Origin: Thermodesulfovibrionia bacterium
Lineage (GTDB): Bacteria > Nitrospirota > Thermodesulfovibrionia > UBA6902
Reading direction: 5' to 3'
Length of the DNA: 64,000 bases
NCBI GenBank assembly: GCA_963699585.1
Contig: CAVOUK010000011.1
Coordinates: forward strand, 125,231-189,230
A program made the position numbers and the translations under genes. Shown one piece after another: positions 2,773 through 63,796 of this stretch. Below the pieces are notes generated by a model. It searched no databases. It had not been told where the DNA came from and saw only the letters and a list, made by a program, of their open reading frames with translations. Position 1 is the stretch's first letter. The number at the start of each line of letters is the position of its first letter.

Positions 2773-3606
2773 CTATTTTAAAAGTTCTTTCCCCCTCCTG
2801 TTGATCGCATAATCACCGGGATCACCAATAAACGGCAGGGCCAGCATCCATGGCAGCGACAAACGCTTTGGGTCTCTGAACTGTGATAAACCGATTGTCA
2901 TTCCTTCATGCCCTGCGGCAGGCTGTGCCCTGTATGTACCCAATAATCTGTCCCACCATGGAAAGTTAAATCCGAAATTACTGTTCGTTTCACGTATTGT
3001 CACTGAATGGTGGACACGATGCATGTCAGGTGTAACGACGAACAGTCTTAACACTCTGTCAAATCCAGGGGGCAAAAGAAAATTACTGTGATTGAACATC
3101 GCTGTGGTATTCAGAACTACTTCAAAAATGAGCACAGCAACTGGTGAAGGGCCAAAGACCGCAACAGCTGCCATCTTGATCCCCATACTGAGATATATCT
3201 CGACAGGATGAAAACGCAGTCCTGTGGTCAGGTCAATATCAAGGTCCGCATGATGCATCATGTGAAGTCGCCAGATGACAGGGACCGTGTGGAACATAAG
3301 ATGCTGCAGATATATAATCAGGTCCAGAATTAAAACCCCTATTGCGACTTCAACCCAGCCCGGCATATTATAGTTATTCAGCAGTCCCCATTGTTTTTCC
3401 TGCGCTATTAAAGACAGGTCTATTGCAAGGAGAGGGTAAATCACTCTTAACGTAACAGTACCGATCAGGACTATACCAAGATTGCCGAACCAGCGGACAG
3501 GCTTTGAAGTTATCAATTTTCGGCGGGGAGACATAACTTCCAGAACTGACATAACAACAAGAGTTCCGAAAAAGAAAGAGAGTCGTATCAGTGCTTCATT
3601 ATTCAT
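2773..3606 (-). CDS. fatty acid hydroxylase / sterol desaturase superfamily membrane protein
   Basis: 277 aa, multiple TM segments, His boxes 'HLMFH', 'HMMHH', 'HRVHH'. Confidence 0.75.
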   Translation of the reverse strand: MNNEALIRLSFFFGTLVVMSVLEVMSPRRKLITSKPVRWFGNLGIVLIGTVTLRVIYPLLAIDLSLIAQEKQWGLLNNYNMPGWVEVAIGVLILDLIIYLQHLMFHTVPVIWRLHMMHHADLDIDLTTGLRFHPVEIYLSMGIKMAAVAVFGPSPVAVLIFEVVLNTTAMFNHSNFLLPPGFDRVLRLFVVTPDMHRVHHSVTIRETNSNFGFNFPWWDRLLGTYRAQPAAGHEGMTIGLSQFRDPKRLSLPWMLALPFIGDPGDYAINRRGKELLK

Positions 3607-3639
3607 GATCTATAGCTCTAAAAAAAGGATGGAATTTGC

Positions 3640-4491
3640 TTAATAAAATTCTTTTAATGTATGCTCTGTTTTTGATGGATCATAGTACTGCTGAACAAGA
3701 GATTTATTCCTGATCACAGATATCCTCTCTTCCAATATCTGCCGGGAATTTCTGTAAATTATCCCAAGTGGGATACGTTCTTCCCATTCAAGGGCTTTTT
3801 TGAATGCCGCAACCCTGTCTTCAGGATTGTATTCGGGCTCAATATGATAAATCCTCTGTTTATACCAGTCATAAGTATTGATCTTATTGAATGTCACGCA
3901 CGGCTGCAAAATATCAACTATTGAAAAACCCTTGTGACTTACCGCCTCTTTTATCAGCCATGTTAAATGTTTCATATCACCCGCAAACCCCCTTGCAACA
4001 AAACTGCAGTCAAGGGCTACAGCCAATGCCATTGGATTAAGCTGCTCGGAAAAAACACCGAAAGGCTGGTTCTTTGTCTTCATCCCTTCCATGCTCGTCG
4101 GAGATGCCTGACCTTTCGTGAGGCCGTATATCTGGTTATCGTGAACAAAAAGTTTTACGTTGATATTTCTCCTGATTGCATGATTCAAATGATTACCGCC
4201 TTCGCCGTAGCAGTCGCCGTCTCCGGCAACTGCCATAACAAGCATCTCATGATTAGCAAGTCTTATCCCGGTTGCAACAGGCAATGTTCTTCCGTGAAGC
4301 CCGTTAAAGGTATTGCATTTGACATAATGGGGGAACTTCCCTGCCTGCCCGATTCCGGACACAATGATAAACTGATGCGGCTCTATGTTCATTTCAATCA
4401 TTGCATTTTTGAATGAGTTAAGAATGCCGTAGTTCCCGCATCCCGGACACCATGAAGGATGCTGCCCCGTGTAATCCTGTAATGTCGGCAT
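3640..4491 (-). CDS. korB: 2-oxoacid:ferredoxin oxidoreductase beta subunit (TPP-binding)
   Basis: 283 aa; N-terminal 'CPGCGNYG' Cys motif and TPP-binding 'GDGD' region typical of KorB/PorB. Confidence 0.8.
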   Translation of the reverse strand: MPTLQDYTGQHPSWCPGCGNYGILNSFKNAMIEMNIEPHQFIIVSGIGQAGKFPHYVKCNTFNGLHGRTLPVATGIRLANHEMLVMAVAGDGDCYGEGGNHLNHAIRRNINVKLFVHDNQIYGLTKGQASPTSMEGMKTKNQPFGVFSEQLNPMALAVALDCSFVARGFAGDMKHLTWLIKEAVSHKGFSIVDILQPCVTFNKINTYDWYKQRIYHIEPEYNPEDRVAAFKKALEWEERIPLGIIYRNSRQILEERISVIRNKSLVQQYYDPSKTEHTLKEFY

Positions 4492-4594: not shown

Positions 4595-6283
4595 TTAATT
4601 GAATATCAAGTCGCGTGTTTCGTTCTTTGCAAGGACCCTCAGGAAGACCTCCACCATTTTGGGATCAAACTGGGTCCCCGAGCAGCGTTTGAGTTCGGAG
4701 ATGGCAAATTCTCTGCCGGGGGCTTTCCTGTAGGGCCTGTCAGCGGTCATTGAATCAAACGAGTCCGCAACCGCAAGTATACTTGCGCATAAAGGTATAT
4801 CACTGCCTTTGATGCCGAGGGGGTAGCCTTTCCCATCATATCTTTCATGATGATGAAGAATGCCGGGGATAACGCTGTTAAGCTGTTTTATGGGAGCGAT
4901 TATATCAGCGCCCTGAGCGGGATGCTTTTTTATAAGTTCATATTCTTCTTCAGTAAGTTTGCCGGGCTTATCAAGGAGCCCGTCAAAAGTGCCGAGCTTC
5001 CCTATGTCATGCAATAAACCGCACATCCTTACGTGATTTATATCTTTCTCACGCAGTCCCATCTCTTTTGCAATTTCCACTGCATAATTTGTGACCCTTT
5101 CCGAATGACCCTTGGTCCATGGAGATTTGGCGTCAATTGTTGAAATAAGCGACGTTACGGTGCTAATGAGCAATTGTTCAAGGTCTTCATAAAGCCTTAC
5201 ATGTTCAAGAGCGACGGTAATCTGGGACGCAATTTTTTCGGCAGTGGATAAATGTTCGGTAGTAAGCCCTCCATAATATACGGAACCGATATCAACAAAA
5301 CCGAGCATTTCACCTTTGCTGACAAGAGGCACTATCATGGCTGATTTAATCCCAAGCTCATTCTGCTCCTGGTAGTAAGAAAGATTAACGCTCTCTTCAG
5401 AAATTTCAGGTATAACAAGAGGACCCTGTAGCCTCTGAATGTTATTAAAACGGGAATCTTTTATATCATAGGTCTTATCAGTGAATTTCCCAAACCCCCA
5501 TTCCGTGACTGTCATGCGACCATCACCGTTTTTAAGAAAAACAGCAGCCCTGTCACAGGGTATTAATCTGCTTGTCAGGACAATGGCTGTCCTTAAAATG
5601 GAGAATTTATCAATAGAAGACAGGATCTCTCTGTCAAGCCGGGCCATTGCATTTATTGTATCTATCTTATTTGTTAATTCTGTAAGTCTGTCACTGGATT
5701 CCCTGAACAGTTTGCTGTTCTGCAGCGCAATGCCGATGCCGTCAGCCAATCCCTTCAGCAAAGCGAGATCTCTTTGCTCTACTTTCTTGATGGTTGTATA
5801 ATTACCGCACATCATACCGCTCAATTTCCCTCTGAAAGATATAGGGACCAAAAGGGCGCTGTTCATGTTGAATGCTTCAGCCAGGTCATGGCTTATCATC
5901 ATACTTTCTTTTGCATTATCTATAATTACTTCTTCACCGTTCAGGACCTTATCGATTGCCGGAAAGTCACCCGCCTTAAAGGTTATTGACTTTAATATGT
6001 CCTCTTCAGCAGAACTTAGCCCGTATCCCCCTTCAAATATAAAATATTTGAGTCTGTCATCATAGAAGAATAAGCCCATATTGTTGAATTTCAGATAACC
6101 CGGCGTAAAATCCAGGACCTTTCTGACAAGTTCCTTTTCTTCAAGGCTTGTATTAAGTGTCTCGACCAGTTGTAATAAAGATTTTGATGTTTCCGCTTCG
6201 CTCTTTATTTCTTCATAAAGCATTACCATTTTTTCTCGCGGCATGCTTGCGCTCGGTAATGTCGTGGACCAATCCCACGGCAT
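4595..6283 (-). CDS. GAF-GAF-HD-GYP domain c-di-GMP phosphodiesterase
   Basis: 562 aa; C-terminal 'HHHERYDGKGYP' HD-GYP signature, 'HDIGK', upstream GAF-like regions. Confidence 0.8.
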   Translation of the reverse strand: MPWDWSTTLPSASMPREKMVMLYEEIKSEAETSKSLLQLVETLNTSLEEKELVRKVLDFTPGYLKFNNMGLFFYDDRLKYFIFEGGYGLSSAEEDILKSITFKAGDFPAIDKVLNGEEVIIDNAKESMMISHDLAEAFNMNSALLVPISFRGKLSGMMCGNYTTIKKVEQRDLALLKGLADGIGIALQNSKLFRESSDRLTELTNKIDTINAMARLDREILSSIDKFSILRTAIVLTSRLIPCDRAAVFLKNGDGRMTVTEWGFGKFTDKTYDIKDSRFNNIQRLQGPLVIPEISEESVNLSYYQEQNELGIKSAMIVPLVSKGEMLGFVDIGSVYYGGLTTEHLSTAEKIASQITVALEHVRLYEDLEQLLISTVTSLISTIDAKSPWTKGHSERVTNYAVEIAKEMGLREKDINHVRMCGLLHDIGKLGTFDGLLDKPGKLTEEEYELIKKHPAQGADIIAPIKQLNSVIPGILHHHERYDGKGYPLGIKGSDIPLCASILAVADSFDSMTADRPYRKAPGREFAISELKRCSGTQFDPKMVEVFLRVLAKNETRDLIFN

Positions 6284-7131
6284 GCCATTCTTCCTTGATC
6301 TTGATGGCTGAGGTTGAAACTTCTATCGGAAATTCGGTCCCGTCTTTTCTGACGGCTGTAAATTCAACGGTCTTGCCGATGGCCGGGCCTTCTCCCGGTA
6401 ATTTTGAACTTATCGAAACCGTTCTTGTAAGTGCCATGATATTTCAGGGGAGCGAGAAACAGGTGTAAGTCTTTTCCGATGGCTTCCTGCTGCGTGTAGC
6501 CGAATAATCTTTCAGCAGAGGGATTCCAATAGACAATTTTACCCTGATTGTTCATAACAATAATGCCGTCCACTGCCGTTGCTGTAATTGCGCGGAATTT
6601 TTCTTCGCTCTCATACAGTAATTTCACTGTCCCGGTAAGGGCGCGCAGCGGGACCATCCTTAAGAAAACGAACACCGCCAAACCGATAACAAGCCCCAAT
6701 GCCGACAACGGTAAGGTCTTTTTCAAAATTGGACGGGCAGACCGCCTTACCTCGATCCTTGCTACGACATTTCCTGCATCGAACAAATCGTGCGAACGCA
6801 TAATAACGGGGGCTTCAACTGCAGCCGAATTGGACGCAATTAAACTGCCGGTCAGATCAACAATGCGGCGTGAGTCATCGTGGTCCCCGGAAAAATGACG
6901 TGACAGCAATTCTTCAAGCCTGTCCCGTTCATATTTCCAAAAATCAGGATTTTCGCCTATTTTCCCTGAGAGAAAGTATGAAAAGGTCTGCGCTTCAGAT
7001 TCCAGCACCGCAGACTCATATTGATAGCTTAAACCAAAATAAATAAGGGGGAAAAGGACCGCACCTATTGCGGACAAGATGATAGCCATGACATTCGTAG
7101 TCCTGATTATCTTCTTGCTGTTGTCCTTCAT
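6213..7131 (-). CDS. membrane-anchored PAS sensor protein (apparent frameshift near 6400-6440)
   Basis: ORFs 6364-7131 (TM + PAS N-half) and 6213-6437 (PAS C-half) overlap in different frames. Together they form one PAS domain that overlaps the start of the HD-GYP gene. Confidence 0.55.
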
Positions 7132-8015
7132 TTCTTGCCTGACAGGGCGATATATCCTTCTTTGTCAAGTATCGCGCGGCCTTCCCTGGATTTAATAAAT
7201 TCGATAAACTTTTTTGCAGCAGGCACGGCTTTTGGTCCTGTAACCAGAAAGAGTTTTTTATAATACGGATAGGTGCCGTCAGCGACTGTCTGGAGGCTTG
7301 GCGCCACGCCGTTTAACGGCAGCATGTGAAGTTGCCTGTTCTCGGAGATAATCAATGAAAGTGTGGACGTACCGATAGCGCCGCTGATCAGCTCTACAGC
7401 TCCCGCGCTCTCCTGGTCAGTGGGCTCCATTATCATTCCTTCCTGAGACAATGCTTTACGGACGGCTTTATCAATTTCAGGTGACATACTTCTTAAAATT
7501 ACTGTGTCCGAGTCGGACTCCGGACGCAATATCAGTCTGACAGGAGAGCCGTCGGGCCACTTTTTTGTCTCGCCTGCGTATATTCCTGCAATGTCATGAA
7601 GAGTGAGATTAAGCCCTTCGATCTTCCGGGCAGTAACAAATACAAAGGGCGTTATGGCGTATTCTACAGCATCGGCCCCTTTCCGCAGTTCATCTTCCTT
7701 CAGAGACCTGCTGCTTACGGCGATGTCAATAACACAATCAACGGCGGCCTTTATCCCCCCGCTGCTTCCGAGGCTCGGAAGGACATCGATTCTTAAATCG
7801 GGGTTTGTTTTTTGAAACGCCTCTGCCAGTGCCTTAATGCTGCCTAATGCGCTGCCTGTCCCACCTATTACAAGGCTGCCATTGTGATCATACGCGTAAA
7901 GTGATGTGACGGGCAGTGACATATAAATAACAATTGACATAAGCAAAATCGTATGGATAAGCCCTGTTAAATTTGCAGAGATTTTTTTATTATGTTTCAT
8001 ATTATGTTCTCCCAT
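7128..8015 (-). CDS. PstS-like periplasmic substrate-binding protein
   Basis: 295 aa, signal/TM N-terminus, PBP-like_2 fold features; 4 bp overlap with the downstream PAS sensor ORF (operon). Confidence 0.6.
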   Translation of the reverse strand: MGEHNMKHNKKISANLTGLIHTILLMSIVIYMSLPVTSLYAYDHNGSLVIGGTGSALGSIKALAEAFQKTNPDLRIDVLPSLGSSGGIKAAVDCVIDIAVSSRSLKEDELRKGADAVEYAITPFVFVTARKIEGLNLTLHDIAGIYAGETKKWPDGSPVRLILRPESDSDTVILRSMSPEIDKAVRKALSQEGMIMEPTDQESAGAVELISGAIGTSTLSLIISENRQLHMLPLNGVAPSLQTVADGTYPYYKKLFLVTGPKAVPAAKKFIEFIKSREGRAILDKEGYIALSGKK

Positions 8016-8174: not shown

Positions 8175-9301
8175 TTACACCTGATCAAGACTGGCAAATA
8201 TTTCTTTTAATAATTCATCTACTGTAAAAGGCCTTCCATCATATTTATTAATCCTATACTTGAAGTAATGTCCGGTCTCCGCTCTCATGAGACGTGCAAA
8301 CTGGCCTGTTGCGTTATTCTCTATACAGATAGAGGTCTTTGCATTGTCAAGAACCTTAAGATAATCAAATGTATCTGTTGAAGGAAACGGATAGATCTCG
8401 CTGAAATGAAGCATAGCCACTGAAAATTTGAAATTTGAACATTTGAAATTTGAAATTATCTACAACTTCTTTTATCACACCGTATGTGGAACCCCATCCA
8501 ACGAGCACAATTTCGGGATTTTCATCCGCCATACAAAACAGGCGGTTCTATCTCCTGCTTGATCAGAGGAAGTTTTTTAAAGAGCCTCTTATCCAGCATT
8601 TTAATCCTTGTTTCCGCATCCTCAACGATATGTCCTTCCTCGTCATGCTCGTCACTGTCGGTAACAACAAGATGTTTTGCATCTCCGGGAACTCCGAGAG
8701 GACTTACTCCGGTTTGTGTAAATGCATGACGTTTATATTCAGAAAGATTTTTAAACGCATCCCCTCTCAATCTGTAGTCCGTATATTTAATCCTGTTCAA
8801 ATCAAAATTATTAAATGTCCATTGCGAATCGGCGAGATACTGGTCAAAAATGATAATGACAGGTATCTGATATTTCTCTGCTATATCAAATGCCCTGTTT
8901 GTGAGATAAAACGCCTGCTCCGGCGTTCCCGGCGCAAATATAACTCTGGGAAATTCTCCATGCGCTGTATAGAGAGCAAACTGCAGATCTCCCTGTTCTG
9001 TCCTTGTGGGCAGCCCGGTTGCCGGACCCGGTCTTTGACCGAGCGCAATAACAATCGGAGTCTCTGTCATACCTGCAAGGGAAAGGCCTTCCACCATAAG
9101 CGCGAATCCGCCGCCTGATGTCCCTGTCATGGCCCGTACGCCGGCAAAGGAAGCGCCGAGGGCCATATTAATTGCTGATATCTCATCCTCTGCCTGTTCA
9201 ACAATAATCCCGTATTCTTCTTCCTTGTCAGCAATGTAATTCATTATTCCTGTGGAAGGCGTCATTGGATAAGCGGAGTAAAATTTCAGTCCCGAAGCCA
9301 T
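8175..9301 (-). CDS. korA: 2-oxoacid:ferredoxin oxidoreductase alpha subunit, interrupted by two apparent +1 frameshifts
   Basis: N-part 8522-9301 ('YPMTPST' ... 'PPVLYGG') and C-part 8175-8420 ('ENNATGQ') match KorA. The middle 'MADENPEIVLVGWGSTYGV' is in a third frame. Shifts are at 'ggcgga' (8522-8532, ATGA overlap) and in the 'tttcaaa' repeat block 8425-8455. Confidence 0.65.
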
Positions 9302-9340
9302 TGCGCCAAGAGCTATGGCTTCAACGCCTGCGATTAGCAG

Positions 9341-9366
9341 TAGGGGCGAACGGCCGTTCGCCCCTA
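9341..9366. repeat. REP-like perfect 26 bp GC-rich palindrome TAGGGGCGAACGGCCGTTCGCCCCTA
   Basis: Perfect palindrome 2 bp after the korG stop. The korA reading frame runs through it with no canonical start codon until ATG 9301. Confidence 0.8.
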
Positions 9367-9368
9367 CA

Positions 9369-9920
9369 TTAAACGAACACCTCTCGGCAATTTTTCAATG
9401 CAAAATCATACCCTGCCTGCGCCGACCTGATATTGCCCTGAACAACATCTTCACCCTTTTTGCTGAATGTATTTCTGATTGTTTCAAAGAGCGGACCCGG
9501 ATCCATGCCGAGCATCCCAAGGACCGCTCCTGTAGCAACAGTATTTGACATTATCTTATTACCGCCGTGTTCAACCGCTATGCTTTCAAAAGGGACATCC
9601 AGAAAACAGGGAGCTTCGTGCTTCTCTTTGAATGCTGATGAATCATAAATAATGGTCCCTTTTTCCGTAAGTTCTTTTTCATGCTGCGATATGCTCGCCC
9701 TGTCAAGTGCAACCACTATGTCAACCACGTCTCTTGATGCCGTAACAGGTTTGTCGGAGAATCTGATCTGATAAAAATTATGCCCGCCCCTTATGCGGGA
9801 TTCATAATCCTGATGGGTAAAGACATGAAAGCCTGATTTAGCGAACAGGTGCGCAAGAGTGTCTCCAATTGTCTGAAGCCCCTGCCCTGCCTCACCGCCT
9901 ATTTTAATTGAGTAGTCCAT
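9369..9920 (-). CDS. korG: 2-oxoacid:ferredoxin oxidoreductase gamma subunit
   Basis: 183 aa; 'IGGEAGQG' motif typical of POR/KOR gamma subunits. Confidence 0.8.
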   Translation of the reverse strand: MDYSIKIGGEAGQGLQTIGDTLAHLFAKSGFHVFTHQDYESRIRGGHNFYQIRFSDKPVTASRDVVDIVVALDRASISQHEKELTEKGTIIYDSSAFKEKHEAPCFLDVPFESIAVEHGGNKIMSNTVATGAVLGMLGMDPGPLFETIRNTFSKKGEDVVQGNIRSAQAGYDFALKNCREVFV

Positions 9921-10024: not shown

Positions 10025-10489
10025 TTACAATTTCTTTTTAAATTCACTCAGCCATCTGATATGGCTCTTCTCTTCGTTTATTATCTCGCTTAATACCCCG
10101 TCGTCTCCAATAACATCTTTTAAGCCATAATAGTAAAGCAGGGTTTCTCTCTCAAAGCCAAGTGCGAAATGGACCGCATCCTTCACTGATTTCAGATGCT
10201 CAAGCGCGGGGAGGGATTTATTCTTTCCGAGGAAAAATTCCGACTCAACTATCGCCCTTAAGTATGCTGAGACCTCTTCCGGATTTTCAATATTGCGGTC
10301 TTCCTCTTTATCTCTGAGTTCAATAAATAAATTTTCATGCTGCTGTTCCATTACCGCAAGCGCATCAAACAGGTTTTTCAACTTACTTTCTTTAGTAAAT
10401 TTCTTTGACATACCTGAGTAAAAATCATAACCGAGTTTCTCCGTCTGTACAGCCTGTTCAACAATTTCACGAACTGAGAATTTTTTCAT
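10025..10489 (-). CDS. ferritin-like / rubrerythrin-family diiron protein
   Basis: 154 aa helical protein with E...EQQH / EEKSH diiron-type motifs. Confidence 0.55.
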   Translation of the reverse strand: MKKFSVREIVEQAVQTEKLGYDFYSGMSKKFTKESKLKNLFDALAVMEQQHENLFIELRDKEEDRNIENPEEVSAYLRAIVESEFFLGKNKSLPALEHLKSVKDAVHFALGFERETLLYYYGLKDVIGDDGVLSEIINEEKSHIRWLSEFKKKL

Positions 10490-10503: not shown

Positions 10504-12471
10504 CTATGATTTTACATATTCTTTCTTCTTTAAAAACTTCCTGAGGATTCCGGGGTCAGTAACCGGCTCATGACATGTGTCCCTGAAACACGGGATGATA
10601 CAATCCCTGTCTTCACCGTAAATGATAGTTGTATAAGGGTTGATAAATGAGACAGCAGTCTCAGCCAGTCTGGATGACGGTGAAGCATCAAGCGTAAGCT
10701 TAAGAGAATTAAAGTATGCGTCAAGAGCGCAAAAATAATATCCTGCGTGAATACCGATATCTTTCGCCTTCGTGGAAAAAACTTTCAATGATTTTTCTGC
10801 ATATTTCAGATATTCTTCTTTTTTTGTCATAAAAGAAAGTTTAAGCAGCAGTATTATGCAGAGAGAATTTGCCGAGGGATGCGGAATGTCTTCAATACTT
10901 TTTATCTTCATTCCGAGAAGATGCTCATCTGTATCAATGAAACCGCCTTCATCCTCATCCCACAGGTTTTTTATGCATATCTCCATAATCTCATCTGCTT
11001 TCTGCAGACAGAAAAAATCGCCTGTCACTTCATACGCCGAAATCAGGGCGTCAGCAAGATATAAGTAATCATCTAATACAGCCTTTACTCCTTCAGTGTG
11101 AAAAAGCTGCTTTCCGGTAAAGTGCATTTTCATTACTCTATCAAGACTTTTCAATGCGAATTCTTTCAGTCCGTTGTCCTTTAATACTCTGTAACTCAAA
11201 AGACAGGCTGAAATGAGCATGCCGTTTATTGATGTATATAAGGTCTTATCAATAAATGGCGTCTGCCTTTCATTTCTTGATTTGAGCAATTTTGCTTTTC
11301 CGCGTTTGATCGATCCGGTAATTTCTTTTATATCTTTCCCTGTAGTTTTGGCGATCTCTTCCGCAGTCATAACAGCAAAAAGGACCCTTTTCGACCCGTC
11401 ATGGTGCATCGCCCCTGCCTTATGCATCAGATGAAGGGAGAGTATCCCGTATTCGTCTTCATCGAGTGCTTTCCTGAACTCATCGTCAGTCCATGTGAAA
11501 TATCCTCCTTCATCATCCGGAGTGACATCCGCGTCCTGACTGATATAAAATCCGCCGTCAGGGTCCGAGAGTACATCATTTATAAATTTAATTATTCCCT
11601 GTGCAACTTCCCTGTAAAATTCGTCGCCAAAAACAAAATACGCGCTTATATAATTTCTCAGCAGCCACGCGTTGTCATCCGCCATTTTTTCAAAATGCGG
11701 TATGGTCCAGGACTCATCAGTTGAATACCTGTGGAAGCCTCCGCCGATCTGGTCATAAAATCCGCCCTGTGCCATCGCTGTAAGGGTTTTTCTTATTACG
11801 AGTTCAACAGCATCACTCTGCTTGAGAAAATATCTGTTGATGAGAAATTCCAGCGCCCCCGGCATGGGGAATTTCGGGGCAGTTCCAAAGCCTCCGTTTT
11901 GAGCGTCAAATTGCGAAAGGATGTCCTGAACGGCCTGGTCCAGCAGTGGTTCGTTTATTTCCCCCTGTGCTGCTGGAGAGGTTTTCAATGCACTTATTAA
12001 TTTTTCCGTATATTGAGAGATTTCATCCCGCCTGGTCTTATAAAGCTCAAGGACCGCTCTCAACACTTTTTTAAATCCGGGCCTTCCAAGTTTGTCATCA
12101 GGAGGGAAGTAGGTCCCTCCAAAAAATGGTTTCTTGTCATGGGTCAAAAATACACTGAGAGGCCATCCTCCCCCTGAGCCCATAGCAGCAACCGCCATCT
12201 GATATCTCTTGTCTATATCAGGCCTTTCGTCCCTGTCTATTTTTATGCTTACGAAATTTTCATTGAGAAGCCCTGCTATTTCGTCATCAAAAAAACATTC
12301 CTTTGCCATCACATGACACCAATGACACCATACAGCGCCGGAACTGAGAAATAATGGTTTATTTTCCTTTTCTGCCAGTTGAAAGGCTTCCTCGGACCAT
12401 GGATACCAGTCTATTTTCTGATCGGCAGCATGTTTCAGGTAAGCTGATTTTTCTTTAGATAGCCTGTTCAT
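10504..12471 (-). CDS. thioredoxin-domain protein, DUF255/YyaL family
   Basis: 655 aa; N-terminal 'CHWCHVM' DUF255 signature followed by a long alpha/alpha-toroid-like region. Confidence 0.75.
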   Translation of the reverse strand: MNRLSKEKSAYLKHAADQKIDWYPWSEEAFQLAEKENKPLFLSSGAVWCHWCHVMAKECFFDDEIAGLLNENFVSIKIDRDERPDIDKRYQMAVAAMGSGGGWPLSVFLTHDKKPFFGGTYFPPDDKLGRPGFKKVLRAVLELYKTRRDEISQYTEKLISALKTSPAAQGEINEPLLDQAVQDILSQFDAQNGGFGTAPKFPMPGALEFLINRYFLKQSDAVELVIRKTLTAMAQGGFYDQIGGGFHRYSTDESWTIPHFEKMADDNAWLLRNYISAYFVFGDEFYREVAQGIIKFINDVLSDPDGGFYISQDADVTPDDEGGYFTWTDDEFRKALDEDEYGILSLHLMHKAGAMHHDGSKRVLFAVMTAEEIAKTTGKDIKEITGSIKRGKAKLLKSRNERQTPFIDKTLYTSINGMLISACLLSYRVLKDNGLKEFALKSLDRVMKMHFTGKQLFHTEGVKAVLDDYLYLADALISAYEVTGDFFCLQKADEIMEICIKNLWDEDEGGFIDTDEHLLGMKIKSIEDIPHPSANSLCIILLLKLSFMTKKEEYLKYAEKSLKVFSTKAKDIGIHAGYYFCALDAYFNSLKLTLDASPSSRLAETAVSFINPYTTIIYGEDRDCIIPCFRDTCHEPVTDPGILRKFLKKKEYVKS

Positions 12472-12871
12472 TCATACAAACAACTACTGAATCTTCAGTC
12501 CCGAATTTATTTGGAACATATCTTTCGGCAAACCAGTCATTTTCCCAACGGTTGGAGTCAACAAGATATCTGAATCTGTATTCCCTGTTACAGGCAAGGT
12601 CCAGAGTTAAAGTGAAATCGCCGTTCTTCAGTTTTTTCATCCTGTTTTCAGTCATATTCCAGTTATTAAAATCACCGACGATAGTGACCATCTCAGCGTC
12701 CTTCGCAGCTTCCTTGGGCAGCCTGAATGTGACCTTGCAAATATTGTCTGATTTCAAATACTGTTTTTTCAGACTTTTTGTCTCAGCGGTTGTTTTAGGT
12801 TTAACAGTCAATTTCTTTTTCACAGGCGCAGCAGCAGCGCTGTGTGCCTTTTTCTCGATAGGTTTTTTCAT
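12455..12871 (-). CDS. CBM48 / AMPK-beta glycogen-binding-domain protein
   Basis: 138 aa; Lys/Ala-rich N-terminus then 'VTFRL...VTIVGDFNNW...FTLTLDL...YRFRYLVD' (isoamylase N-domain-like). 17 bp overlap with the upstream gene. Confidence 0.5.
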   Translation of the reverse strand: MKKPIEKKAHSAAAAPVKKKLTVKPKTTAETKSLKKQYLKSDNICKVTFRLPKEAAKDAEMVTIVGDFNNWNMTENRMKKLKNGDFTLTLDLACNREYRFRYLVDSNRWENDWFAERYVPNKFGTEDSVVVCMNEQAI

Positions 12872-12937: not shown

Positions 12938-13783
12938 TCATATCTGTTTGATAACATTATACTTGCTGTTGAGTAAATTGCCAAGTCTTAAGAGATGTTT
13001 TTTCTCCTCTTCAGCAAGAAGGTCAAATATTTTCTGTGTATCTTTATTTTCCAGTTTATTAAATATTTTCAAATAGAGATCGAGTGAATTGGTCTCAAGC
13101 TGGATGGAAAATTCAAGGATATCAGTGAGATCTCTTTTACTTTCATTCAGCCATTTCATGGCTTCATCCATCGATAAGCCGCCCTCTATTGTGCCGGATA
13201 AATGTTCTTCTCCATATTTGCCGTTTTCAATACCCATTCCTTTAATGTGCATATATTCCTGAACAAGTGTCTCCTTGTGTTTTTCCTCTGCTTTGACCAG
13301 AGAAGCGAACACACCTTTTGATTCCTCATCTGCTACCGCATCTTTCACACTCTCATAAAATCTGCGGGTCCCGTCTTCAAGAGACCACGCCATTGTAATG
13401 AATTCCTCTGTTGTCTTTCTTCCTTCAATTAAGTACATCCCGGACTCATACTGTCCTGTAGCTTTCAGACCGTTCCATGCATCAATTCCGCCTTTAACAC
13501 TGTACACTTTATCAAACCCCTGCCCTTTTAATAACGACGCAGCCGACCTGCTGCGTACCCCTCTTTGTCAATATGTGATTATAGTCCTGGAAGGGTCCAA
13601 TTCCTTCATTTTATCCGGGATGCCTGACATTGGCATCAGGACAGCTCCGGGGAGATGCTCCGCTTCATATTCCTTTGGTTCACGGACATCAAGCAATACT
13701 GCATTTTTATTCTCAGAAAGCAACTGCTTTGCCTCATCAGGGCTTACCGTATCAACTCTGTTAAAAATATCTGTCAGCTTCAT
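12938..13783 (-). CDS. candidate selenoprotein: rhodanese-domain / ferritin-like (rubrerythrin-type) fusion with in-frame UGA (Sec) at 13568-13570
   Basis: ORFs 13568-13783 (rhodanese N-half ending '...TIITY') and 12938-13507 share one frame, separated only by TGA. Read through it gives 'TIITY-U-QRGVRS...VYSVKGGIDAWNG', i.e. TGA at the catalytic-Cys position of the rhodanese CX5R loop. A hairpin lies 11 nt downstream (separate feature). Confidence 0.55.
13530..13560 (-). promoter_or_regulatory. SECIS-like stem-loop downstream of in-frame UGA
   Basis: mRNA: UGA-caaagaggggu-ACGCAGC-AGGUCG-GCUGCGU. 7 bp stem, apical loop with GGU, starting 11 nt after UGA; resembles the E. coli fdhF SECIS upper hairpin (GCAGGUCUGC). 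Confidence 0.5.
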
Positions 13784-13865
13784 TTAACCCTGTTTATTAC
13801 CATAAGTTACTGACAGCATTATCATTGCAATCACCATTACTCTCATTCTCTTCCATTGATTTAAA

Positions 13866-14117
13866 TTATTTTCCTGCAAAGTTCTTTATGAACTCGCTTA
13901 TCTGAAAACCAAGCGGAATACATTTTATCCCGTCCATACATTCGTCGGCGTCTTTTTTCTCAAGATGCGTTACGAGTCTGTGTGAATTTTTCTCAAGTTT
14001 AATATCATATGTTTTCAATTGCCGGTTAAAATCAAGACTGACAGAGATGCCCTGCTGTTCGATCTCAGGATACATCTCCATTATCTTGTCCTTCAATGCA
14101 ACATTCGTATAACCCAT
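13866..14117 (-). CDS. hypothetical small protein (83 aa)
   Basis: Strong RBS AAAGGAGGAG before the ATG; family not recognised. Confidence 0.5.
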   Translation of the reverse strand: MGYTNVALKDKIMEMYPEIEQQGISVSLDFNRQLKTYDIKLEKNSHRLVTHLEKKDADECMDGIKCIPLGFQISEFIKNFAGK

Positions 14118-14215: not shown

Positions 14216-14701
14216 TCAGCCTTCCACTATGCTGTGCTCATCCCACATGAACCAGTTCCCTGTATCCATTAAAAAATTATATGTATTTTCAAAGATGGCG
14301 TAATGCTGTTCTTCTTCACTGATCAGCTTCTGAAAAAGCGTCTTTTCCTTCTCTGTTTTTGCTTCTGTCATAAGTTTTCTGTAGAATTCGATACCTTCTT
14401 TCTCCATCTGCATGGCAATCTTGAACGCCTCCAGTTCGTCGGCAGTAGCCCGGACTTTCTCCATCATTTTGTCTTTCATAGTCTCAAAAACTGTTTTGAT
14501 GTTATTCATGGGGTGAACATCGTCCATCTGAATTTCGAGTCCCTGCAGAAGCTTGTTGACTATTGCAAGGTGGCGTTTTTCATCTACGACTATGGTCTCG
14601 AACATCTTTTTACCGGCAGGATATTGCGTCCTGCCTGCTGCTTCAGTGTAAAACCTTATAGCGTCCGTCTCCATCTTCCTGGCTATTTCAATTGCATTCA
14701 T
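14216..14701 (-). CDS. rubrerythrin-like diiron protein (no rubredoxin domain)
   Basis: 161 aa; paired 'E..H' ferritin-like motifs (DEKRHLAI, EEEQHYAIFE). Confidence 0.65.
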   Translation of the reverse strand: MNAIEIARKMETDAIRFYTEAAGRTQYPAGKKMFETIVVDEKRHLAIVNKLLQGLEIQMDDVHPMNNIKTVFETMKDKMMEKVRATADELEAFKIAMQMEKEGIEFYRKLMTEAKTEKEKTLFQKLISEEEQHYAIFENTYNFLMDTGNWFMWDEHSIVEG

Positions 14702-15267: not shown

Positions 15268-15693
15268 TTATTTTCCACCAGTGTCAGCATAAAGGTCATA
15301 TAATGCCTTTCCGATAAAAAAATCTCCCCACGCGATCCCTATATCCGGCAGGGTTGATTTGAGAAACCATTCTCCTGCCGGTACAGCCTTTGCGGTAAAT
15401 TCAGCAATGCTGTAATGGGCCATGAAAACAGTGCCATAGATAACGATCATGCCGTTCAAAAGATACCCGTAAACACATGTTTTTCTCGATGTAAAAAGAG
15501 CTGTAACCGCTACTACATCGATGACAGGAAAAATGAACGAAAGAAATCTTGTGCTGTCAAACCTCACAATTTCAGGATTAATCTTATCATGGACCATGAA
15601 ACCATGAATTCTGTAATGAAGGAGTAATCCGGAAACAGCAAGGAGAAAAAGTGCTGTCAATAGTGCTCTTTTAGCATTCATAATTATGATCAA
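15268..15693 (-). CDS. hypothetical integral membrane protein (TTG start)
   Basis: 141 aa, 4 predicted TM helices; TTG start overlaps the stop of the upstream small ORF (TTGA). Confidence 0.5.
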   Translation of the reverse strand: MIIIMNAKRALLTALFLLAVSGLLLHYRIHGFMVHDKINPEIVRFDSTRFLSFIFPVIDVVAVTALFTSRKTCVYGYLLNGMIVIYGTVFMAHYSIAEFTAKAVPAGEWFLKSTLPDIGIAWGDFFIGKALYDLYADTGGK

Positions 15694-60207: not shown

Positions 60208-63200
60208 CTATTCTAATTTAAAATCGACCCGGCTGTCTTTGACCTTCTCCTTTTGCTCCGGTTTGAGAGATTTCGGCGTTATGAGAAATACCCTTTCCTG
60301 CTCTACCTGGTCCGATTTCAGTATGTAGTCTTTTATCCTGAGGGAACGCTGTGATGCAAGCTGCCTGAGGTCGTCATCTTTTACCTCTATGTGGGTCAGC
60401 ATGAGTTTTTCCATCTCGGGTACGGGCAGGTCTTTTGCCATGCCGATGAAGTTTCTCGGTTTTGGAAATTTCTCTTCTTTGTAAGCCATCTTAAGGTATT
60501 TCGGGTATTCATCCGTTTCTATTTTGACCTCATCTACCGGAACAGCAGGCTGTCCTTTTTTTATAATATCCTTCAATTTCTGGGCCCTGATCTTCTTGTG
60601 AAAGAGATACTGTATCAACCCTTCCCGGTCTTTTTCAGGGTCAACAAATCCCTCTATATCAAGTTTGAGATTCGGCCTGTCATGAAGCACCTTTACCAGG
60701 GTATCGAGTTTTTTCGCCCCCTCAGCAGTTATATCGTAACTGCCGAAATCAAACTCCATATAACCGAGTTCCTCCCCTCCTCCAAAGATCGCCCCCAGGA
60801 GCGCAAAAGGAGAAGTCGCGGCCTTGACGAGAAGATTCAGGAGTATTTTGATCACTATACTGAAGATGCTGAACTTGGGATCATCGATCTCCCCTGTGAC
60901 CGGGATGTCGAGGTCTATCCTCCCCTGCCTGTCTTTTAAAAGCGCTATCGCAAGCCTCACCGGCAGTTTCGTTGCATCAGGGCTTTCAACCGTATCGCCG
61001 AGCGTGAACTGGTCGAGAAAAACATTGTTTTGAGAATCAAGTTTTTTCTTAACGATAAGGTATTTCAGGTCCAGTGAGAGTTTGCCTTTTTCGATTGTAT
61101 ACCCGATATACTTGCCGGAGTATGGCGTCAGGGAACTCAGGTCCATGTCCTTGAAATCCACTTTAAGGTCAACAAGCAGGTCTTCTTTTAACGGGTTGAT
61201 CCTGCCGGTTATTTCGAGCGGGGCATAGTTCTCGAGTTTCCCTCTCAGGTCCACGTCTGCAGTTGTGGCCTCTTCAGAAGAAAGTCCCGATACCCTTCCG
61301 CCTATTTCAAGCATATTGACTGAATAGACAGGTTTGATATGATTGTCCGAAAAATTTACCGCTCCTCCCTGCAACGTGAGATTATCAATCTTCACCGGCG
61401 GCACAGGTTTCTTTTCCTGGGCAGCGTCAGTCTTCTCTTCAACAGGCGGCTTCTTTGCCGCTTCTTCCTCAGCAGGCTTATTGGACTGGACGATCCCCTG
61501 AACATTGAGCGTGCCGTCCTCGTTCACTATCAAACGTGAATAAAAATCAGTAAGCGCGATCTCTTTAATATTCACATGCAAGGGATTGTAACCTGCATCA
61601 ATGCCGCTGAAATAAAGAGACTGCCATTTCAAAAAATCATCAGCATTCACCTTGTCGACGGACGCAAAATCCTGTAAAGCTGCCTCCCCCTTAAATGCCG
61701 CCTTTATTCCGGCAGCTCCCGTATCGCTGACAGAGAGATTCCCTTTTGTCATTACACTGCCGCCAGTGACGATGATTTTGATCTTATCCGTAAAATAGGG
61801 TTGGAAGGGGCCGATCTCCACACCCTTAAGGTTCAACGCGATGTTCGCTGAAAGCGGATCGATACCCAGTGTCCCGCTTGCGGAGACAGAGCCGGTCTTA
61901 TTCAGTTTAAGAGAAAGCGAGACCTTGCCCTTTTGTTTCTTGCCGGTTGAAAGGTCCGCCCCTTTGACCTTTATCTGCCCGGCAGTAATTTTTACCGGTT
62001 CCGACGGCACGAGGTCTTCAAAATTTACGGTATACTTCTCCGCCAGTAAGTTTTTCAGGTTGATCAGAAATGGTTTTTCATCCTTCTTTACAGCAGGGGC
62101 AGGCGGCTTTTCATTAATTTGCGCGGACGGTAAAAGTGTCTGAACATTAAGTTTTCCGTCACTCAGACGGCGGAGGTTAAAAATGCCTCTGTCTGTTGAA
62201 ATATCGCCGACGGTGATCTCCCTGTTTGTCAGATCTATGTCGGTATCTTTAACATTGAATGCAGGGATAGAGAGAAAATCATAATCGTCCCCTCTTTTCC
62301 GAAGCTTCAGGGAATTCAATGTTGCGGACAGGGCCGACAGCTTCACATCCGGAACATCTGCGGGTTTTTTAAATGAATATTGTGTGCTGAAGTCCAGCAC
62401 GGCATCTTCAATATCAAAGAGTATTTTGTCCCTGTAGTAAGGCGAGTACTTTTTCAGAAGGACCTGTTTTAATCCGATACTGCCGTCGGATGAAAGCGGG
62501 TCAAGTGAAAATTCCCCGTTCAGCGTTACGCCCTCCTGCGATTCGGTCTGCAAGGCCAATGCTACCGCTGACTTTCTGTCCTTAATGTTGCTGAAATGTT
62601 CGACCTTGACATCTATTTTCTCAACAACTGTTTTGAAGTCCTTATTGTCCGTAAAATCCGAGAAAGAGAGTTTACCCTGTGCGATACCAATCTCATCCGC
62701 TTCAATGACAAGAGGCAGGCTGCCTTCATCCTTTGGCGCGGCCTTTTTTTCTTCCTGCTCAGGAATGAGTGACTGAAGATTTATCCGTTCCGATTTCTCC
62801 CTGACAACATTAACTTCCGGGGCATTCAATGAGACCTTGGCCAGGTGTATCTTTTTCATCAAAAGGTCAGCATCTGCGAAAGCGATGTCCAGAAGCAGGT
62901 ATTTTTACAAGGGGATTCTTTTCGCTGTCTGTAATATCTATTTTTTTAAACAGAATATTTCCTTTAAGGGAAATAACAGGCGGCCTCTCCTTTAATTGCA
63001 AATAAGAAATTAAACAGTCGACATTGAGATAAGCTGAGTTGATCCTGTAATCCATCTTTAATGGGATATATCCGAGATAATACGGGATATCCAGATCTTT
63101 TATTTGCACGTCGAATATGGTCTCACGCGTGTCTGCGAATGGCTTTGTCTCTCCTTTCAGTGAAATCTGCCTGTCATTCAGCTTTGCCTCAAAGGACGGA

Positions 63201-63796
63201 GTAACATATGAATCAACATAATGCGGAAGGTTTGACAAAAAGGGGATAACAGTATTGATATCGCTTAAGGAATGCCTGGTATGCTTAGGCAGATCATTAA
63301 ACTCTATTTTACCGGCAGTTATAAATATATTGTTAAGGGAATACTTTAATGGTTCGGACTTTGTCATGGTCTTATGCTCATCAGATTTTGCAAGATCTGA
63401 AAAGTTGTAAGACAGGTCTTCATTACGAACAATATGAAAATAAGGTTTACTGACCCGCAATTCGCTGAGGATCACGCCTCTTTTAAATATCGACATGGTC
63501 TGAAGATTAACATAAAGTTCATCAATAGAAAGAAAAGTCTCAGGACCGTTCCTCTCTTTTATCTCTAACCCCTGTATATCAACCGAGAGCATGAAAGGAT
63601 TAACTTTTATCTTCTGAATGGCAACAGTTCGCTGGAGGTTTTCGGAAAGTTTACTGAGCAGTACCGACTTTATGACAGGAGGGAGAATTAAGAATCCTGT
63701 AATTGTGAAAATAACAAGAAGGATAAGCGACCATTTTAAATATTTTATAGAACGGGGCGATGACCTTAACTCCTTAACTGATCTGACAATATCCAT
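60208..63796 (-). CDS. large AsmA-like/DUF748-type envelope protein (N-terminal TM anchor), +1 frameshift near 62862-62900
   Basis: ORFs 62867-63796 (TM anchor) and 60208-62862 (884 aa) are adjacent in different frames. Removing one G of 'tctgga' joins them as '...KIPAS-DIAFADADLLMKKIHLAK...'. Confidence 0.55.

Follow-up and report, generated by a model that had tools for sequence, protein, structure and literature searches.

An in-frame TGA in a rhodanese-ferritin-like gene

Two adjacent open reading frames (ORFs) on the minus strand of contig CAVOUK010000011.1, from a Thermodesulfovibrionia bacterium, lie in one frame and are divided by a single TGA codon, which raises the question of whether this codon ends one gene or is read as selenocysteine (Sec) in the middle of another. 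The stretch of DNA analysed is 64 kb long and is called the window throughout. We consider it very likely that the two ORFs constitute one selenoprotein gene, dependent on a Sec insertion sequence (SECIS), in which UGA is recoded as Sec. The upstream ORF (13783..13571) comprises 71 codons from its ATG and is closed by the TGA at 13570-13568; past this codon the same frame stays open for 209 codons more, until a second TGA at 12940-12938. Both coordinates and translation bear out the arrangement described in the initial annotation, which had drawn attention to the pair. The read-through peptide is ...DPSRTIITY-U-QRGVRSRSAASLLKGQGFDKVYSVKGGIDAWNG..., no stop or frameshift other than the UGA at codon 72 occurs within the 281 codons, and full-length homologues of about 280 aa align with the read-through product from end to end. 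The features of the gene are as follows.

12938..13783, minus strand: proposed selenoprotein gene, a rhodanese / ferritin-like diiron fusion of 281 codons, with ATG at 13783-13781 and an internal UGA as codon 72
13568..13570, minus strand: in-frame UGA, read here as Sec (U72), at the catalytic Cys position per the homologue alignment
13472..13744, minus strand: rhodanese homology domain, residues 14-104, per Pfam PF00581, PDB profile matches and the fold of a homologue
12968..13414, minus strand: predicted ferritin-like (erythrin-type) diiron-carboxylate four-helix bundle, residues ~124-272, per Pfam PF02915, its ligands and PDB matches
13537..13556, minus strand: SECIS-like hairpin within codons 76-82 (V-R-S-R-S-A-A), per its fold and its specificity to TGA forms

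That reading through the TGA completes a rhodanese domain, as had been proposed, is seen in the Pfam match to PF00581, which spans the TGA (84.2 bits against a cutoff of 22.2, E 9.6e-24). Profile matches to the PDB for this part, an ordinary single-domain rhodanese, include GlpE, PspE and YgaP, as well as rhodaneses fused to persulfide dioxygenase, CoA-persulfide reductases and metallo-beta-lactamase. An AlphaFold (AF2) model of a 55%-identical Cys homologue, P0002, was of high predicted quality (predicted local distance difference test score, pLDDT, 89.5; predicted template modelling score, pTM, 0.86), and predicts an alpha/beta rhodanese domain with a long four-helix bundle C-terminal to it. 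In this model, the predicted rhodanese part superposes on 3tp9, 3gk5 and GlpE (1gmx) with root-mean-square deviations of 1.3-2.0 Å. One detail of the initial annotation has to be amended: the active-site loop had been described as CX5R, but it is C/U-X4-R (U72-Q-R-G-V-R77-S), the six-residue rhodanese type. Seven-residue CX5R loops are of the Cdc25 / Acr2 type, unlike the six-residue loop of rhodaneses.

The C-terminal half matches Pfam PF02915 (Rubrerythrin; 39.8 bits against a cutoff of 22.8, E 7.4e-10), and the predicted diiron ligands (E136, E166xxH169, E230 and E260xxH263) are conserved, all six of them, in 91-92 of 92 family members, in agreement with its earlier description as a diiron domain. 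Its PDB matches are the TM1526-type ferritin-like diiron proteins 1vjx and 2fzf. The window protein contains zero Cys, and most Cys forms of the family contain exactly one. Having no Cys, the protein can have no rubredoxin-like Fe(Cys)4 domain and so is not a rubrerythrin proper; with zero Cys besides Sec72, it also has no internal resolving thiol. Its predicted chemistry would be of the persulfide-carrier type or else depend on an external thiol partner.

Cys or TGA at codon 72 among homologues

The TGA had been placed at the catalytic Cys position of rhodaneses, with the suggestion that homologues be aligned to see whether they carry Cys or Sec there. A search with the read-through protein retrieved rhodanese-rubrerythrin fusions of about 280 aa, and, in addition, numerous shorter calls (160-205 aa) whose label mentions rubrerythrin alone. 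In the alignment, Cys stands at the TGA column in 58/58 full-length members, within the motif TYC-x-x-G-x-R-S, and the short database calls (33/33) begin downstream of that column, so the placement held. At the DNA level, the codon is TGC or TGT in the 29 Cys-form genes inspected, and a further 14 of the sequences examined (12 distinct genes), from Nitrospirota and Desulfobacterota among other groups and down to about 35% identity, likewise have TGA there. The DNA of short calls at approximately 89%, 60% and 36% identity (loci L001/L002, L003 and L004-6, respectively) has the same in-frame TGA and an open downstream frame, with a rhodanese fragment of 71-73 aa annotated immediately upstream of each short call. 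The closest relatives belong to Thermodesulfovibrionia/Nitrospirota.

Species-representative genomes were scanned with a generic rhodanese peptide pattern, which yielded at least ~35 full-length loci; the window's own genome and its closest relatives are not among the matches listed. Of these, at least 11 have TGA at this codon (L010, L011, L012, L015, L016, L018, L022, L024, L029, L032 and L037), and the remaining loci have TGC or TGT. Among the matches listed, the TGA carriers are Thermodesulfovibrionales, Nitrospiraceae, a metagenome-assembled genome (MAG) labelled Bacteriovoracaceae, Desulfotignum, Desulfobulbaceae, Desulfonema limicola, Desulfobacteraceae, Desulfobulbales, Desulfopila, an uncultured deltaproteobacterium and Desulfobacula. 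The frame 3' of the TGA is open for about 205 codons in the 11 species-representative genomes, as it is in L001/L002, L003 and L004-6, and it is intact in all TGA forms but L037. This last locus (993-1918 of a Desulfobacula MAG) is a TGA form with a second stop at codon 128, for which a frameshift, an insertion or an error of assembly in that MAG may account. The same TGA in independent assemblies from several lineages is neither a sequencing error nor a private truncation.

All 15 TGA forms share U-x-x-G (U-Q-R-G in the window), and G75, R77 and S78 are invariant across the family. The ratio of nonsynonymous to synonymous substitution rates (dN/dS) upstream of the TGA is 0.22 against L001 and 0.20 against L003, and downstream of it is 0.17 and 0.11, respectively; over the 20 codons that follow the TGA ahead of any potential restart codon, it is 0.09 against L003. 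Purifying selection acts on both sides of the TGA. On a rough neighbor-joining (NJ) tree of the family, TGA and Cys forms are interleaved, with at least ~10 changes between them. The family is large: at 50% identity, the best 150 clusters include ~130 that match in a single stretch of about 280 aa, and there are 797 clusters at E <= 1e-30, a count that includes multi-rhodanese proteins.

A hairpin downstream of the UGA

A spacer of 11 nt, CAAAGAGGGGU (13567-13557), separates the UGA from a hairpin with a 7-bp stem and a 6-nt loop: ACGCAGC (13556-13550), loop AGGUCG (13549-13544) and GCUGCGU (13543-13537). Its sequence and its start, 11 nt 3' of the TGA, are as given in the initial annotation. 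The hairpin is the minimum free energy structure predicted by RNAfold (-12.6 kcal/mol), and its loop begins 18 nt after the UGA, inside the range used by bacterial SECIS predictors. The core GCAGGUC resembles the E. coli fdhF element GCAGGUCUGC.

We compared TGA and Cys genes sharing the RS..AA residues in a fixed register that pairs codons +5 and +6 with +9 and +10. An uninterrupted run of at least 5 bp is present in this register in 13/15 TGA genes, versus 1/19 Cys genes (Fisher p 1.4e-6), and nearly all TGA genes with the stem use the codons CGC-AGC...GCU-GCN. The two exceptions among the TGA genes, L029 and L032, have register-shifted hairpins (GAGCCGC-GUG-GCGGCUC in L029, and an apical loop GGUGG in L032). 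All TGA forms have G at loop positions 2-3 (AGGUCG, CGGGCG, CGGGUG, and so on).

A control with matched peptides is provided by the Cys genes L087 and L088, which encode the identical peptide of the window, ITYCQRGVRSRSAA (ITY-C-QRGVRSRSAA). Their codons are AGA-AGC-AGA-TCN-GCN-GCT, which form no stem and contain no GGU, with AGAUCN in place of AGGUCG. In the window's clade, CGC-AGC-AGG-UCG-GCU-GCG is retained by each of the three TGA genes. Inside individual clades of the rough tree the hairpin tracks the TGA, and this pattern, together with the interleaving of TGA and Cys forms, meets the objection that the sequences are not independent. The hairpin goes with the TGA and is specific to TGA forms, and it very probably acts as a bacterial SECIS element, presumably in dependence on SelB.

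Counter-evidence and alternative explanations

Several results nevertheless weigh against reading the UGA as Sec. The folding energy of the hairpin does not differ significantly from that of shuffles (z = -0.94), and because it is unremarkable in this respect, the hairpin gains its significance only through the comparison of homologues. RNAalifold, applied to 15 TGA-form sequences, returned a consensus of a 5-bp invariant stem with zero compensatory changes. Such an absence of covariation is expected, because the stem sits inside conserved codons, and it is the reason that the synonymous codons of TGA and Cys genes were contrasted instead. The stem is short, however, and as it lies within the protein-conserved R-S-x-x-A-A codons, conservation of the RNA sequence alone is no proof; the conservation of the hairpin is in part protein-driven. 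One Cys form (TGT), L009 (CP070737.1, Nitrospiraceae bin398, 3001-3834), retains the full 6-bp hairpin. On the NJ tree its sister is the TGA form L012, and it has probably switched from Sec to Cys recently, leaving the SECIS as a relic. No SECIS-type match was found in Rfam, either in a gathering search of the whole window or in a permissive search of 13480-13620, although Rfam's coverage of bacterial SECIS elements is poor and a null there is uninformative.

Also to be counted here are apparent indel errors of the assembly close to the fusion gene, in the gene for pyruvate:ferredoxin oxidoreductase (POR), and the gene content of the window. ARAGORN detected only tRNA-Gln, tRNA-Glu and tRNA-Val in the 64 kb, with no tRNA-Sec, and the window contains no selA, selB or selD per Pfam searches that included 20 further large ORFs, nor any second selenoprotein gene. 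This null is confined to the 64 kb and has no bearing on the remainder of the genome. A 2026 review describes selC of Nitrospirae as embedded in selB (PMC13188914), and deltaproteobacteria are rich in selenoproteins, with rhodanese selenoproteins belonging to the most abundant families of one well-studied case (PMC1976440). The taxonomy of the TGA forms (Nitrospirota and Desulfobacterota) is indirect, phylum-level support for the use of Sec.

A pseudogene, in which a nonsense mutation in a Cys-rhodanese fusion has left two ORFs as decaying remnants, would be in keeping with the broken genes nearby in the window, namely POR with its frame changes (at least 3), a split DUF748 gene and an internally deleted small cytochrome gene. 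Against this stand the 14 other sequences with the same TGA codon and, L037 excepted, an intact downstream frame, dN/dS of 0.1-0.2 on both sides, and 281 codons with no other stop or frameshift; the conservation of both TGA and frame effectively refutes decay, to which we assign only a very slight probability. An error of sequencing or assembly, with a true codon of TGC or TGT and an ordinary Cys-rhodanese fusion, might be suspected from the indel-type errors of the assembly and from the fact that Cys forms are the majority of the family. The errors observed are indels, though, and not substitutions, and the same TGA is present in close relatives in independent JGI, Logan and ENA assemblies (L001, L002 and L003). 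Moreover, the window has the TGA-specific codons CGC-AGC-AGG-TCG-GCT-GCG that are absent from Cys genes for the same peptide, and such an error is in our view extremely improbable.

Somewhat more room is left, although it is still unlikely, for a genuine or leaky stop unrelated to Sec, by which a 71-aa rhodanese fragment would be made along with a ferritin-like protein reinitiated at GTG 13507, or a near-cognate Trp or Cys would be inserted by read-through. The lack of Sec machinery in the window and a hairpin that is short and not significant by energy fit such a stop, and a hairpin after a stop could also favour other kinds of read-through. The 71-aa fragment, however, would be without the active-site loop and without half of the rhodanese fold, and the 20 codons before the restart, under the strong constraint against L003 given above, encode the invariant G-x-R-S-x-x-A-A loop and helix. 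In addition, the UGA replaces the catalytic Cys in lineages known to use Sec, and the G at loop positions 2-3 is as expected of a bacterial SECIS. Genome-wide reassignment of TGA to a sense codon (Trp or Gly, as in genetic codes 4 and 25) has nothing in its favour but the in-frame TGA itself. Of 30 ORFs in the window that are long or supported by Pfam, 11 end in TGA, this gene among them, and none of the 23 other in-frame-TGA candidates in the window is a plausible gene. With TGA an ordinary stop elsewhere in the window, the recoding is local; stop-codon usage refutes reassignment, whose probability we regard as negligible.

Genomic neighbourhood

The gene had been described as sitting in a cluster of four ferritin-like genes and a DUF255 gene. 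The four units proved to be three stand-alone genes and the fusion's own domain, with the DUF255 gene at 10504-12471. The neighbouring genes are as follows.

10025..10489, minus strand: stand-alone ferritin-like (rubrerythrin-family) protein, 154 aa, syntenic in L001 and L003
10504..12471, minus strand: DUF255 / Thioredox_DsbH thioredoxin-fold protein, 655 aa (Pfam PF03190, E 1.1e-68), with one CHWC at residue 49
12455..12871, minus strand: CBM48-domain protein, 138 aa, downstream of the fusion and conserved beside TGA and Cys forms
14216..14701, minus strand: stand-alone ferritin-like (rubrerythrin-family) protein, 161 aa, syntenic in L001 and L003
14747..15244, minus strand: stand-alone ferritin-like (rubrerythrin-family) protein, 165 aa, syntenic in L001 and L003

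A DUF255 gene lies 3' of the fusion, with or without an intervening CBM48 gene, in the window, in L003 and in the Cys-form loci L087-L089, with an overlap of 8 nt between the fusion and DUF255 genes in L089. Two distant loci from deltaproteobacteria (L040 and L059) have a DUF255 gene directly upstream of the fusion. The DUF255 protein is a candidate redox partner of the fusion. Neighbours of the fusion in Desulfobacterota include ferritin, a rubredoxin-type gene, cytochrome bd oxidase, AhpC and flavodoxin. In the 89%-identical relative L001 (10984-11277), the DUF255 gene encodes 97 aa, versus 655 aa in the window and L003; a large C-terminal part has been lost and the thioredoxin-like N-terminus kept.

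Two further proteins of the region, both encoded on the minus strand, have no Pfam or NCBIfam match: an 83-aa protein (13866-14117), syntenic with the ferritin-like cluster in L001-L003, and a predicted membrane protein of 141 aa (15268-15693), syntenic in L003. Between the 83-aa gene and the fusion, L001 (9344-9649, 101 aa) and L003 (5366-5677, 103 aa) have an intact gene for a small secreted CxxCH (monohaem cytochrome c-like) protein. The window retains a remnant of this gene (13784-13879, minus strand), in which the signal-peptide start MRVMVIAMIMLSV is joined to the C-terminal TYGNK, indicating an internal deletion.

Several other genes in the window depart from their expected form. POR (8199-9920, minus strand) is split over frames -3, -1, -2 and -3, and is one ORF of 575 aa in L001; the frameshifts, at least 3 in 1.7 kb, are either assembly indel errors or gene decay. 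About 3.7 kb (4595-8015, minus strand) lie between the POR and PFO-beta genes, which adjoin in L001, and include a GAF/HD-GYP-type protein (4595-6283) and two further ORFs, reflecting an insertion or rearrangement relative to L001. A DUF748/AsmA-like gene (60208-63796, minus strand) is split by an apparent frameshift into ORFs of 309 aa and 884 aa in different frames, and the ORFs of PheT (684 aa) and threonyl-tRNA synthetase (558 aa) are seemingly short at the N-terminus.

Proposed mechanism and function

According to the mechanism that we propose, the UGA at codon 72 would be recoded as Sec in translation, with the hairpin (stem CGCAGC/GCUGCG and G-containing loop AGGUCG) as the putative SECIS element. 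By analogy with characterized systems, SelB-GTP-Sec-tRNA(Sec) would bind the apical hairpin and be delivered to the ribosome paused at the UGA. The product would have 281 residues, with Sec72 as its sole Cys-type residue at the first position of the loop U-Q-R-G-V-R-S, in a rhodanese fused to a diiron bundle. As a highly nucleophilic residue, Sec may act as a carrier or redox residue, possibly through Se-S or Se-OH intermediates; sulfur or electrons may pass between the Sec or Cys of the rhodanese loop and the fused domain's diiron site, and Sec could be recycled by the neighbouring DUF255 thioredoxin-fold protein through its CHWC. Gene architecture, Cys/Sec homology, constraint on either half, the hairpin specific to TGA forms, the identities of the two domains, the metal ligands and the recurrent neighbours are shown by the analysis; SelB dependence, selenium incorporation and this chemistry we infer from the gene and its relatives.

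Coupling of Sec to the diiron site with recycling by DUF255, in a cluster that would defend an anaerobe against oxygen, peroxide or reactive sulfur, is a tentative suggestion that we put forward with considerable doubt. Two things count against it: the functional proposal is drawn from domain content and neighbourhood only, and full-text literature searches returned no paper on a rhodanese-rubrerythrin or rhodanese-ferritin-like fusion and no study of any member of the fusion family. A search for literature on the function of DUF255 returned nothing relevant.

Relation to known systems

Rhodanese-like domain-containing selenoproteins are listed in a 2026 catalogue as forms 1-5, of which forms 2 and 4 are described as 'rhodanese-related sulfurtransferase' with the motif UxxG (PMC13188914). 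The window gene resembles the catalogued Sec-rhodaneses in having Sec in place of the catalytic Cys of PF00581, with U-Q-R-G fitting the UxxG of forms 2 and 4, and in the occurrence of the family in Deltaproteobacteria/Desulfobacterota (PMC1976440). It differs from forms 2 and 4, as the catalogue describes them, in its partner domain, since PF00581 only is listed for these and no rubrerythrin or ferritin partner (PMC13188914); a rubrerythrin/ferritin fusion is mentioned in neither of the two reviews consulted. By the catalogue's classification, the window gene would be filed under form 2 or 4. Ten clusters of the family were checked for the reference proteins of these forms, MBM9537886.1 and MCY3690685.1, and neither is listed under their NCBI accessions. 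The window protein scores below cutoff with the models for form 3 (NF041203, LYCAU; 43.3 bits against 115) and form 5 (NF045694, TsoB; 27.7 bits against 805), and no NCBIfam model matches it at cutoff, the best being GlpE (71 bits against 102). The Sec-rhodanese kind is already known, with a fair chance that the fusion architecture is a variant of it not yet catalogued.

Like the fdhF-type SECIS of E. coli, the hairpin is located just 3' of the UGA inside the coding region and has a small G-containing apical loop (GGU), but the stem in the window's family, at 5-7 bp, falls short of the fdhF one and has no evident bulged U. By sequence and fold, the closest rhodanese structures are the fusions 5ve3 (persulfide dioxygenase), 3icr/3nt6/8a56 (CoA-disulfide/persulfide reductase) and 3tp9 (metallo-beta-lactamase). 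These persulfide-handling proteins likewise have a single-Cys rhodanese covalently joined to a metal- or flavin-dependent redox or oxygenase domain; in the window protein, by contrast, the partner is a predicted ferritin-like diiron bundle, the rhodanese is N-terminal and the catalytic residue would be Sec. With rubrerythrin/erythrin-type proteins (PF02915; TM1526, 1vjx; the erythrin domain of MbfA) it shares the four-helix bundle, the E/ExxH/E/ExxH ligands and rubrerythrin-family gene neighbours. Unlike rubrerythrin proper, it is without the rubredoxin-like Cys4 domain and has the rhodanese-Sec domain in the place of that electron-transfer domain.

Implications for annotation and for the family

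Public records split the TGA genes into a "rhodanese" of 71-73 aa and a truncated "rubrerythrin/hypothetical protein", and in GenBank the TGA forms appear as truncated hypothetical proteins (e.g., RJQ56094.1 and RJQ47257.1). As sampled, split annotation affects about a third of the family, with 33/91 database calls and 15/44 genes at the DNA level, and reading the TGA-form genes as selenoproteins would correct it. To a selenoprotein specialist this is a clean case, yet no surprise. The family does offer natural Sec/Cys pairs, some of them with identical active-site peptides, in which the hairpin is gained or lost purely by synonymous codons, and it may therefore serve as a clean system for studying the evolution of SECIS elements inside constrained coding sequence and the minimal requirements for SelB binding.

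It is conceivable, though we would not presume it, that this is an uncatalogued family in which a Sec-rhodanese coupled to a diiron centre and a DUF255 partner would form a selenium-iron redox module, perhaps a new peroxide-, oxygen- or persulfide-processing enzyme of anaerobes, with Sec and Cys repeatedly interconverted and each interconversion mirrored by gain or loss of the SECIS via synonymous codons. The use of Sec suggests demanding redox or chalcogen-transfer chemistry, and the family, with hundreds of clusters at 50% identity, a rhodanese and a diiron domain, and a conserved DUF255 partner, points to a widespread, uncharacterised enzyme.

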